Positions 1 through 3,000 of a stretch of 44,351 nt of DNA are shown piece by piece. The first letter of the stretch is position 1. Each line of letters begins with the position of its first letter. The stretch comes from Candidatus Woesearchaeota archaeon. Its GTDB lineage: Archaea; Nanobdellota; Nanobdellia; Woesearchaeales; JACPJR01. The stretch is taken from positions 1 through 44,351 of the forward strand of contig JACPJR010000028.1 in NCBI GenBank assembly GCA_016187565.1, written 5' to 3'. The position numbers are program-made.

Positions 1-3000
1 ATAGAAGTAGCACTTCTACCGCTTCTGTATTGCTGTACTACCCACTTTCTTTTTTTTCATTCAATTTTTCCATTTAAATCACCAAAAGTGCAGAAATCTC
101 GGCTTATTATTAAAGTGTAAACTAATAATCAAATTAAACAAATATTTTCGTAAGAAGAAAGCTTTTTATAACAGCGAGGTTTTACCCAGAAAAGGTGATC
201 ATGTGACAGAAAAAACTGACTGTATGCTCTTCTGCGGCTGTGCAAACCCCGCATTGGCACAGGAGATCTCCTCATATCTTGGTGTCCCTCTGGGGAAGAT
301 AGAGATATCTCATTTTCAGGATGGTGAAGTCTATGTCAGGATTCTTGAACCGGTTCGGAAAAAGCAAGTCTTTGTTATTCAACCTACCTGTCGACCAGTG
401 AATGAAAACCTGATGGAACTTCTTTTAATCATCGACGCATTGAAGCGAGCATCAGCAGGAGAGATCATTGCAGTTGTCCCTTACTTTGGGTATGCACGAC
501 AGGATAGAACTGCCCTTGCTCGCGAGCCCATCTCAGCAAAAGTAGTTGCTAATATGATTCAAACAGCTGGTGCTGATCGGGTAGTAACTATTGATCTCCA
601 CTCAGATCAGATTCAGGGGTTCTTTGATATTCCTTCAGATCACTTTACCGCAATACCAACGATTGCGATCTACCTCCTCGGTAAGCAGATGAAAAAAGGA
701 ATTGTTGTTGCCGCTGATACTGGTGGAGTAAAGAGAGCACGCCGTTTAGCGCAAACCATACAGTTTCCTCTCGCGATTATTGATAAGCGACGACCAAAGC
801 CAAATGAGGCTGAAATCTGCAATGTTATTGGGGATGTTAAAGGAAAAACAGCCATCCTCTTTGATGATATGATTGATACCGGAGGCACGATTGTGGCTGG
901 CTGTCATGCGCTCTCTGAGAGTGGTGCAAAGGACGTATATATCTGTGCAACCCACGCATTACTCTCGGGAGATGCGATCAATAAACTCCAGAAAGCAAAG
1001 GCAAAAGAGATCATTGTCACGAATACTATCCCTGTTCCTAAGGAAAAGCAACTGCCGAACATGAAGTTTCTTTCGATGGGCGTTCTTTTAGGAGAAGGAA
1101 TCAGACGCATTACCGCTGGAGAATCAGTAAGTGTACTCTTTGATGCCATGGTGCGAGATTACTTGCGGCAGGCTAAGGGAACACGATTAGATCAGTTTAA
1201 GGAGGTATAATGGAAGCAGAACATCAGGAAAAGCATCTCCTGTATCAATTTCTCGAAGAGCAAGTGAAACAGATAAAAGAACAAATAGAGAAAGTAGATG
1301 AACAACTTGGAGAGGTTACTGAAATGAAGAATGCCCTTCAAGAATTTGCAGTGCTTCAACCGGGTTCATCACTCCTTGTTCCGCTTGCAAATGGTATCTT
1401 TTGTCAAGCAGTATTACAAAAAACAGATGCATTAACCATCAATGTGGGTAGTGATGTTTGTGTTGAGAAAGATTTGGCAACAACACAAGAACTGGTTCAA
1501 AAACAGCAGGAACAACTAAAGGAATATCGTGCAAAGCTTATCAAACAACTCGAGCTCATCCTGCATCATACTGAGCAACTCAAAGATGAGTTAGCTTCGC
1601 TCCATGAGTAAATACCTTTGGGAGTAATGTACCATGTTTGGATTTCTCAAAAAGAAACTAGGACAAGCATTAGCAACCTTTTCGCGTAAAGTAGATGACG
1701 CTACTTCTGAGACTCCATCATTACCTATACCACAAGAGGAACAAGAAAGCCTGGTTGAGAAAAAAAAAGAAGAGATTAGCATTGAAAAAGTGCCTCAATC
1801 GTCTGAAAAACAGGCTGAAGAAAAACGCGAGAAAATAAGCGAGCAGGAGAAGCCAAAACAGACGATCTTTCAGAAATTAAAAGAAACCGTAACGAAAACA
1901 GCCATCTCTGCATCCCAATTTGATGAACTCTTTTGGGAGTTAGAGCTTGTCCTGCTTGAGAATAACGTGGCTGTTGAGGTCATCGAGAAGATTAAAGAGG
2001 ATCTCAAAAAAGAATTAGTTGATCAGAAAGTGCTCAGAGGAAAAACCGCAGAGGTCATCCGGAATACCCTTATCCATTCAGTAGAGGAGCTCTTTCAAGG
2101 AGAAACAATCAACCTCATTGAACGTATCAATGCAAAGAAAGAAGGGCCATACATCATGGTGTTTGTTGGCATTAATGGTTCGGGAAAAACAACAACCATT
2201 GCAAAGATTGCTGCCTTGTGTCAGGCCAATACATTAACCCCAGTTATTGCTGCAGCTGATACCTTTCGTGCTGCGGCTATCCAACAGCTTGAAGAACACG
2301 GAAGAAGATTAGGCGTTAAGGTTGTTAAGCACGATTATGGTGCAGATCCCGCAGCTGTTGCCTTTGATGCCATAGCCATGGCAAAGAGCAAGAAAGTGGA
2401 TGTCGTGCTTATTGATACTGCCGGAAGGATTCACGCAAACATTAATCTCATGGATGAGATGAAAAAAATCATCAGAGTGACCAAGCCTGATCTCAAGATC
2501 TTTGTTGGTGAAAGTATAACCGGAAATGACTGCATTGATCAAGTACGAGAGTTTAATGATGCCATTACTATTGATGGCATTATCCTTGCAAAGGCAGATG
2601 TTGATGAAAAGGGCGGAACTGCACTCTCTGTTTCTTATGTTACCGGAAAGCCCATTGTTTTTCTCGGAACCGGTCAAGGATACGCTGATCTTAAGGTATT
2701 TGATAAGCATGCAATCATAGCCCAGTTAGGGTTGGCTTAGGGCATCGAGAATCATAATAGGTTTCGTGGCGATATAGATACTCTAGAACCAAAAACTTTA
2801 TAAATGAATGATAACTACTGGGTAATAACACTTTTAAAAACTAGCTAGGTGGGGTTTCATGAAAGAAATGATAAGACCTATAAAACAGAGTGCTCGTGTA
2901 CTTCTCTTAATAAGTTGTTTACTTCTATTCTCGGTAATGGTTATGGCTGTTCTTCAGCTTGATAGCTATACCAACACGCTTGCCGGTGATCAAGGAACAA

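Follow-up and report, generated by a model that had tools for sequence, protein, structure and literature searches.

Absence of aIF6 and matching loss of the Nmd3 zinc finger in Woesearchaeales and sister orders

In Shwachman-Diamond syndrome the failing step is the release of IF6 by SBDS. RsfS (RsfA) is the uL14-binding anti-association factor of bacteria. The eukaryotic late pre-60S checkpoint brings together eIF6/Tif6, Nmd3, Lsg1, SBDS/Sdo1 and Efl1, with eIF6 being essential in yeast and mammals (PMC6579518, PMC6710477; these and the other articles are cited for individual passages). The canonical archaeal system is composed of aIF6, aEF-2 and aSBDS (PMC2615626, PMC8024482, PMC3828320): aIF6 binds uL14 (PMC2615626), and its release in Sulfolobus needs only aEF-2 and is inhibited by aSBDS (PMC8024482). 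Pyrococcus aSBDS binds idle 70S ribosomes (PMC13324472). The gene for aIF6 is essential in Haloferax volcanii, where depletion mattered in one of six conditions (PMC3828320), and a survey of 727 RefSeq archaea with two DPANN representatives called Tif6 and Sdo1 consistently present and Nmd3 ubiquitous (PMC8481954). Our literature searches found no report of aIF6 loss, including in passages of PMC8204110 and PMC10732040 and in the supplements of PMC7414124 and PMC13324472, although supplementary, GTDB marker or arCOG tables and subscription journals may show it; the passages of PMC13324472 report neither aIF6 loss nor a short Nmd3.

The genome studied here (G000; 1.94 Mb in 35 contigs, 96.66% complete) shares homologous SBDS and Nmd3 with the eukaryotic checkpoint, its Nmd3 keeping the eL22-like, SH3 and OB parts, but it has no IF6, and its Nmd3 lacks the equivalent of yeast residues 16-154, which encompass the zinc finger and the eL31-like domain. 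With the canonical archaeal system it has SBDS, uL14, eL24 and ABCE1 in common, whereas aIF6, which positive relatives retain upstream of pfdA-ftsY, is absent here. It differs in the same respect from P. abyssi, the organism of the hibernating-70S work, which still has aIF6 (PMC13324472).

The window, that is, the whole stretch of 44,351 nucleotides that was analysed, begins with prs, pfdA and ftsY arranged head to tail on contig C24 of this genome:

1..202, no strand assigned: region upstream of prs, the position of aIF6 in relatives with the order aIF6-prs-pfdA; AT-rich and non-coding on the + strand
203..1210, + strand: prs, ribose-phosphate pyrophosphokinase (open reading frame; PF13793, E 7.9e-50; PF14572, E 2.2e-29)
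1210..1611, + strand: pfdA, prefoldin alpha (PF02996, E 6.7e-15)
1634..2740, + strand: ftsY, SRP receptor GTPase (PF00448, E 1.3e-69)

An earlier note on this DNA had described the same arrangement at 224-2740, with prs beginning at ATG 224; the arrangement holds, and the start of prs is likely the GTG at 203, a few bases 3' of an AAGGTGA motif. Every + frame of bases 1-223 holds stops, so no aIF6 tail lies ahead of prs, and a regular-expression scan located TATA-like words at 73, 104 and 163. Where aIF6 precedes prs in relatives (loci L004, L024, L027 and L030), the intergenic gap does not exceed about 70 bp. On its downstream side the slot has a constant marker, pfdA, which follows aIF6 in most positive loci, and the other half of the ancestral slot in this genome is scpA (C16:135776-136660), situated mid-contig with a convergent gene 20 bp later. 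Both halves of the ancestral slot are thus assembled and empty, which largely removes the doubt, voiced in the earlier note because of the incomplete bin and the contig edge, about loss in this genome itself. Further along the window, an 805-aa predicted secreted Ig-like repeat protein (2859-5276) stands ahead of an Alba gene (PF01918; 5463-5750), and on the minus strand at 6215-8531 lie two overlapping ORFs that, from sequence motifs, we take to be FabH/KAS-III-like and B12-binding radical-SAM-like.

The pentein-fold member (PF01912) of a complete IF6-Nmd3-SBDS checkpoint was not found in this genome. PF01912 gave no match at E 10; custom aIF6 profiles run with --max on all 32,544 stop-to-stop frames reached at best E 0.025-0.035, on a 55-aa frame; and tblastn with 46 aIF6 proteins returned a best E of only 0.011. 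These searches confirm the initial observation that no aIF6 gene is found in the genome. Its assignment to the order Woesearchaeales follows the earlier note, and in our trees the genome is placed outside the clade of Pacearchaeota-labelled records.

Of the 301 Woesearchaeales genomes with a completeness of 90% or more, 161 had a PF01912 match over the cut-off, leaving 140 (47%) without aIF6. With one genome per family, aIF6 was missing in 54 of 104 genomes and in 38 of the 72 that are at least 95% complete, so that the earlier figure of over half the order should be read as about half, the excess over half varying with the draw of genomes. The 301-genome counts take in seven unpublished genomes (G086 and G227 positive; G101, G156, G159, G236 and G290 negative), of which G101 also enters the Nmd3 table, and our conclusions are independent of them.

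The weakest true PF01912 match in the order has an E value of 3e-21. Weaker matches in G010, G051, G131 and G181 were rejected as diverged aIF6, the proteins being 334-355 aa OB-fold proteins, presumably of the RPA type. An order-specific profile built from 36 aIF6 proteins was applied to one positive and to 79 of the 140 negatives; it recovered the positive control at 3e-92 and yielded no true match in the 79 negatives (best 0.0019); among its six weak matches, five were read and are unrelated ORFs, and the sixth is the 55-aa frame of G000. Even the five aIF6 proteins of the class that are most distant were detected by the same profile, with E values of 2.7e-68 to 5.7e-21, so its sensitivity is ample. 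Five low-contig negatives drawn from the three orders gave no true match to a wider 46-sequence aIF6 profile; weak matches occurred in G336 (E 0.025, an 852-aa frame) and G538 (E 0.009).

The absence of aIF6 tracks family, and not completeness or genome size. Family assignments are listed for 293 genomes; the 44 families with at least three members comprise 19 that are uniformly positive, 18 that are uniformly negative and 7 that are mixed. With one genome per family, the two states do not differ in size (median 1.15 vs 1.3 Mb) or completeness (96 vs 96), leading us to reject both as causes. Branch length was likewise rejected, the branches of negatives being no longer. As controls, uL14 was found in 160 of 160 genomes, SBDS in 270 of 301 and pfdA in 73 of 80. 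It is barely credible that the absences simply reflect gaps in the assembly or binning of metagenomes. Such gaps do occur: seven of the 79 negatives also lack pfdA, the locus of G065 lies at a contig edge, and four such genomes have a full-length Nmd3. These genomes are probably assembly gaps, with the exception of G007, in which no pfdA was detected but whose family is truly aIF6-negative. They account for about one in ten of the checked negatives, and as a general explanation gaps are refuted by the single-contig negatives (G011, G019 and G334), the 18 all-negative families, the closed slots described below, the complete recovery of uL14, the absence of SBDS from merely 2 of 161 positives, and a shortening of Nmd3 at another locus that a gap at this one leaves unexplained. 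The loss of aIF6 is genuine.

Examination of 1.5 kb flanks shows that the slot has been cleanly closed in negatives. scpA stands directly before pfdA (16), prs (3) or a 55-aa ORF (4) in 23 of 39 negative loci, and 13 of 36 positive loci have aIF6 between the same genes, with a positive counterpart for every negative arrangement. More generally, 30 of the 36 positive loci carry aIF6 upstream of pfdA or prs, a position that it also holds in distant orders; a sister order presents the same contrast as eL14-aIF6-pfdA versus eL14-pfdA, where the name eL14 is assigned from sequence motifs. As a separate observation, a conserved and likely helical ORF of about 55 aa occurs just 5' of pfdA in 11 loci (L001:2118-2336, L002, L005, L009, L013, L072, L074, L079, L083, L314 and L315). 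It is present in both aIF6-positive and aIF6-negative genomes and was not found in G000; NCBIfam has no match for it, and the atlas gives only unnamed clusters at 0.82-0.83.

To place these states on a phylogeny, we used trees of 103 genomes based on a concatenation of 21 translation proteins. The aIF6 state changes 21 times on the FastTree topology and 23 times on the IQ-TREE quick topology, and after removal of six gap-flagged genomes 17 changes remain, compared to at least 26 in 200 shuffles; the trees are star-like with conflicting or poorly supported deep branches, which makes the number of losses approximate, and change counts are blind to gain versus loss. We regard it as likely that aIF6 has been deleted many times independently in the class. 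That blindness would also accommodate an early loss followed by several regains through horizontal transfer, in which case the patchiness would not record repeated loss, and the aIF6 gene tree does split families f68, f85, f101 and f27. We consider this highly improbable, given that aIF6 occupies the position upstream of pfdA or prs in most loci and in distant orders too, that the gene tree recovers f59, f64, f49, f103 and the sister order as clades, and that the Nmd3 finger discussed below would have to be restored at every regain.

The phenomenon extends beyond Woesearchaeales. In the sister order that contains G302, aIF6 is present in 7 of 111 genomes and missing from 104, and in the Pacearchaeales-like order of G305 PF01912 exceeded its cut-off in none of 121 genomes at least 85% complete. 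G305 sits in a long-stemmed clade (support 1.0) together with all nine Pacearchaeota-labelled records placed, a placement for which 18 of 80 named loci were used and around which database labels are mixed. In the sister and other orders SBDS was recovered from 79 of 80 genomes, showing that detection does not fail on long branches. Recurrent loss, which the earlier note put forward for Woesearchaeales as the first such archaeal lineage, is supported, but it is not confined to that order, two sister orders showing it to a greater extent. Near uL14 relatives of G305 include many records labelled Woesearchaeota and a few labelled bacteria (L343-L422); those that were placed fall within the Pacearchaeota-labelled clade, which makes labels of this kind untrustworthy for telling orders apart. 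The pfdA block of the sister orders (L197-L200, L202-L206) has moved and now stands last in the large ribosomal-protein operon, presumably 3' of secY and, in the order of G302, before what we take to be a primase-like gene.

SBDS is intact in G000, as first noted, at C11:32352-33068: the three-domain protein of 238 aa scores 261.7 bits against TIGR00291 (cut-off 126.55). Within the order, SBDS is missing in 2 of 161 aIF6-positives and 29 of 140 negatives, including the whole of families f19, f62 and f84. Its retention without aIF6 is usual, but its independence of aIF6 is incomplete: 29 of the 31 SBDS-lacking genomes (11 of the 31 identified by subtraction) also lack aIF6. That SBDS is missing almost only where aIF6 is absent echoes yeast, in which weak-binding TIF6 alleles bypass Sdo1 (PMC6710477). 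Nevertheless, SBDS loss was rejected as a rule following aIF6 loss, since the sister orders keep SBDS and the nesting of the two losses is not significant over independent pairs (3.2 to 0, p 0.25). The eviction of IF6, put forward at the outset as the known job of SBDS, is its eukaryotic job, Sulfolobus aSBDS being inhibitory to release (PMC8024482), and an IF6-independent role for archaeal SBDS is already in print (PMC8024482, PMC13324472). SBDS may be retained without aIF6 because its job on hibernating 70S needs no IF6 (PMC13324472). Overall, a genuine recurrent loss with SBDS usually kept survives from the initial interpretation, and its framing does not.

The strongest independent support for the loss comes from trimming of Nmd3, which the earlier note had not noticed. 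In yeast the zinc finger of Nmd3 remains bound to eIF6 (PMC6579518). Nmd3 was found in 146 of 150 genomes, and its N-terminal part, judged from the start of the Pfam match alone, is present in 60 of 68 aIF6-positives and 9 of 78 negatives. After borderline cases had been read, the first zinc finger was assigned to 57 of 67 positives (G102, at a contig edge, being left out) versus 6 of 78 negatives; among the 69 shortest negative forms, 34 were read, with a finger in none, and the score of the other 35 (frames of 105-170 aa) comes from the search table. Four of the six finger-bearing negatives are probable gaps and two belong to family f8. Over independent pairs, finger and aIF6 change in the same direction 11.0 to 0.0 (median p 0.001), and a second tree gives 11.4 to 0.0. 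The order of G302 repeats the pattern, with the N-terminal part kept in 6 of 7 positives and all 39 Nmd3 proteins detected among 42 negative genomes reduced to frames of 99-135 aa (21 read); in the Pacearchaeales-like order Nmd3 exceeded the cut-off in none of 24 genomes. Mini forms of this kind are deposited in public collections as complete 'NMD3-related' proteins.

The Nmd3 of G000 (contig C17, 201 aa) begins at the eL22-like domain, and the upstream gene ends about 77 bp before its start. PF04981 scores over its cut-off with a Pfam match covering 139-243 only, and the protein has the PF04981 architecture of an eL22-like domain followed by SH3 and OB folds. No N-terminal domain lies upstream, and the best candidate genome-wide is a 76-aa acidic ORF on another contig (E 2e-4). 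The predicted structure (pLDDT 95) has pre-60S chains as its top 14 Foldseek matches (E 6.7e-9), followed by eIF5A, and a profile aligned to yeast Nmd3 18-265 at E 1.4e-17, single-sequence searches of the PDB having returned nothing.

The link between Nmd3 and aIF6 is tight and not obligate, as seen in ten of the 67 aIF6-positives that have no finger and in family f8, which has no aIF6 but a full-length Nmd3. Family f8 (L317-L320), in which G007 and G109 have a full-length Nmd3 and scpA abuts pfdA, probably represents a recent aIF6 loss. These same exceptions, together with a loss of C-terminal Nmd3 domains in positives and negatives alike, would fit a separate erosion of aIF6 and the finger in the general reduction of symbiont genomes, with no functional link. 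Such separate erosion is nonetheless improbable: negatives are neither smaller nor faster-evolving, the independent pairs are unanimous, the pattern recurs in a second order, and G089 and G016 have deleted the eL31-like part yet keep the finger. A co-variation of this kind, read alongside the yeast structure, suggests that a contact between the Nmd3 zinc finger and aIF6 may also operate in archaea. In an exploratory comparison, genomes without the finger had lower aIF6 scores (median -log10 E 47.6 vs 55.2, p 0.008), a difference that the SBDS control did not show (p 0.69); as tip branches trend longer in fingerless genomes (p 0.09) we did not use this drop to order events.

Other Nmd3 arrangements were observed among aIF6-positives. 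In family f33, Nmd3 is split, the zinc finger and eL31-like part forming a separate gene (L308 in G032; L309 and L310 in G121), and in the single-contig G121 the halves are about 457 kb apart. The finger is kept and the eL31-like part shortened or deleted in L284 (G089), L277 (G016) and L254 (G311) and, according to the search table, in G321 and G402.

If the checkpoint were replaced and not reduced, an unrelated or unrecognisably diverged protein would block the uL14 face of the 50S subunit. This is the main alternative, and we consider it unlikely. The essentiality of aIF6 in Haloferax (PMC3828320) would fit such a protein, as would the retention of eL24, which shows no co-loss with aIF6 (5 of 5 negatives), and the conserved 55-aa ORF in the slot of some genomes. 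That ORF also occurs in positives and is absent from G000, and the natural substitute on the same ribosomal surface, RsfS (PF02410), was found in none of five negatives searched (9 of 14 control genomes gave a match), which led us to reject an RsfS-type replacement. A replacement would further be consistent with uL14 being equally conserved in both states: no uL14 (49 vs 49) or uL3 column exceeded the 95% permutation maximum, so there was no sign of a relaxed aIF6-binding surface, and three single columns (uS8, uS17 and uS19) marginally exceeded it among 11 proteins tested. However, uL14 also forms a subunit bridge, which would explain its conservation. A diverged aIF6 is further disfavored by the sharp end of true matches in the order, with nothing real below it, and by the unremarkable branches of negatives. 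On the small-subunit side, ABCE1 is present in 7 of 8 negatives tested and aIF1 in 110 of 120 operon stretches. G305 lacks aIF6 and Nmd3, and in this one genome ABCE1 was not found by PF04068 or by the G000 protein.

Taken together, these data favor, with a probability of roughly 0.7, the reading that aIF6 is missing here and has likely been deleted many times in the class, with matching loss of the Nmd3 finger and a likely reduced gate on the large subunit. What stands in for aIF6 we infer as follows. By analogy with structures from yeast and archaea, the eL22-like domain that Nmd3 retains, for which yeast structures predict binding to the P site of immature large subunits, would plug that site and the peptidyl-transferase centre until uL16 is placed. 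SBDS would then both check and shield this centre together with the GTPase site, much as it does on idle 70S ribosomes of archaea. Premature joining might be limited from the small-subunit side, by initiation factors such as aIF1 and by ABCE1, which prevents re-association after splitting (PMC7196836), and not by a 50S-bound blocker. Without aIF6, SBDS could be lost in some families and would mostly be kept.

We tentatively propose, at a little short of even odds, that the late large-subunit checkpoint shared by archaea and eukaryotes has SBDS as its irreducible core and that the class forms a dismantling series. The series would run from the full module, through genomes in which aIF6 is gone and Nmd3 is a 100-residue P-site plug, to the Pacearchaeales-like order with neither aIF6 nor Nmd3 (and perhaps no ABCE1), whose ribosomes would depend on SBDS alone for maturation and have no 50S anti-association factor.

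The eIF-6 family is used in the GTDB archaeal marker set, and for this class it is a poor marker of completeness and phylogeny. The matched loss of the finger provides comparative evidence, drawn from sequences, that the Nmd3-IF6 link known from yeast may operate in archaea. A factor thought universal in archaea and eukaryotes has thus undergone real and recurrent loss, accompanied by a co-evolving domain loss in its partner, and with half or most genomes lacking IF6 in three archaeal orders, the factor is dispensable.
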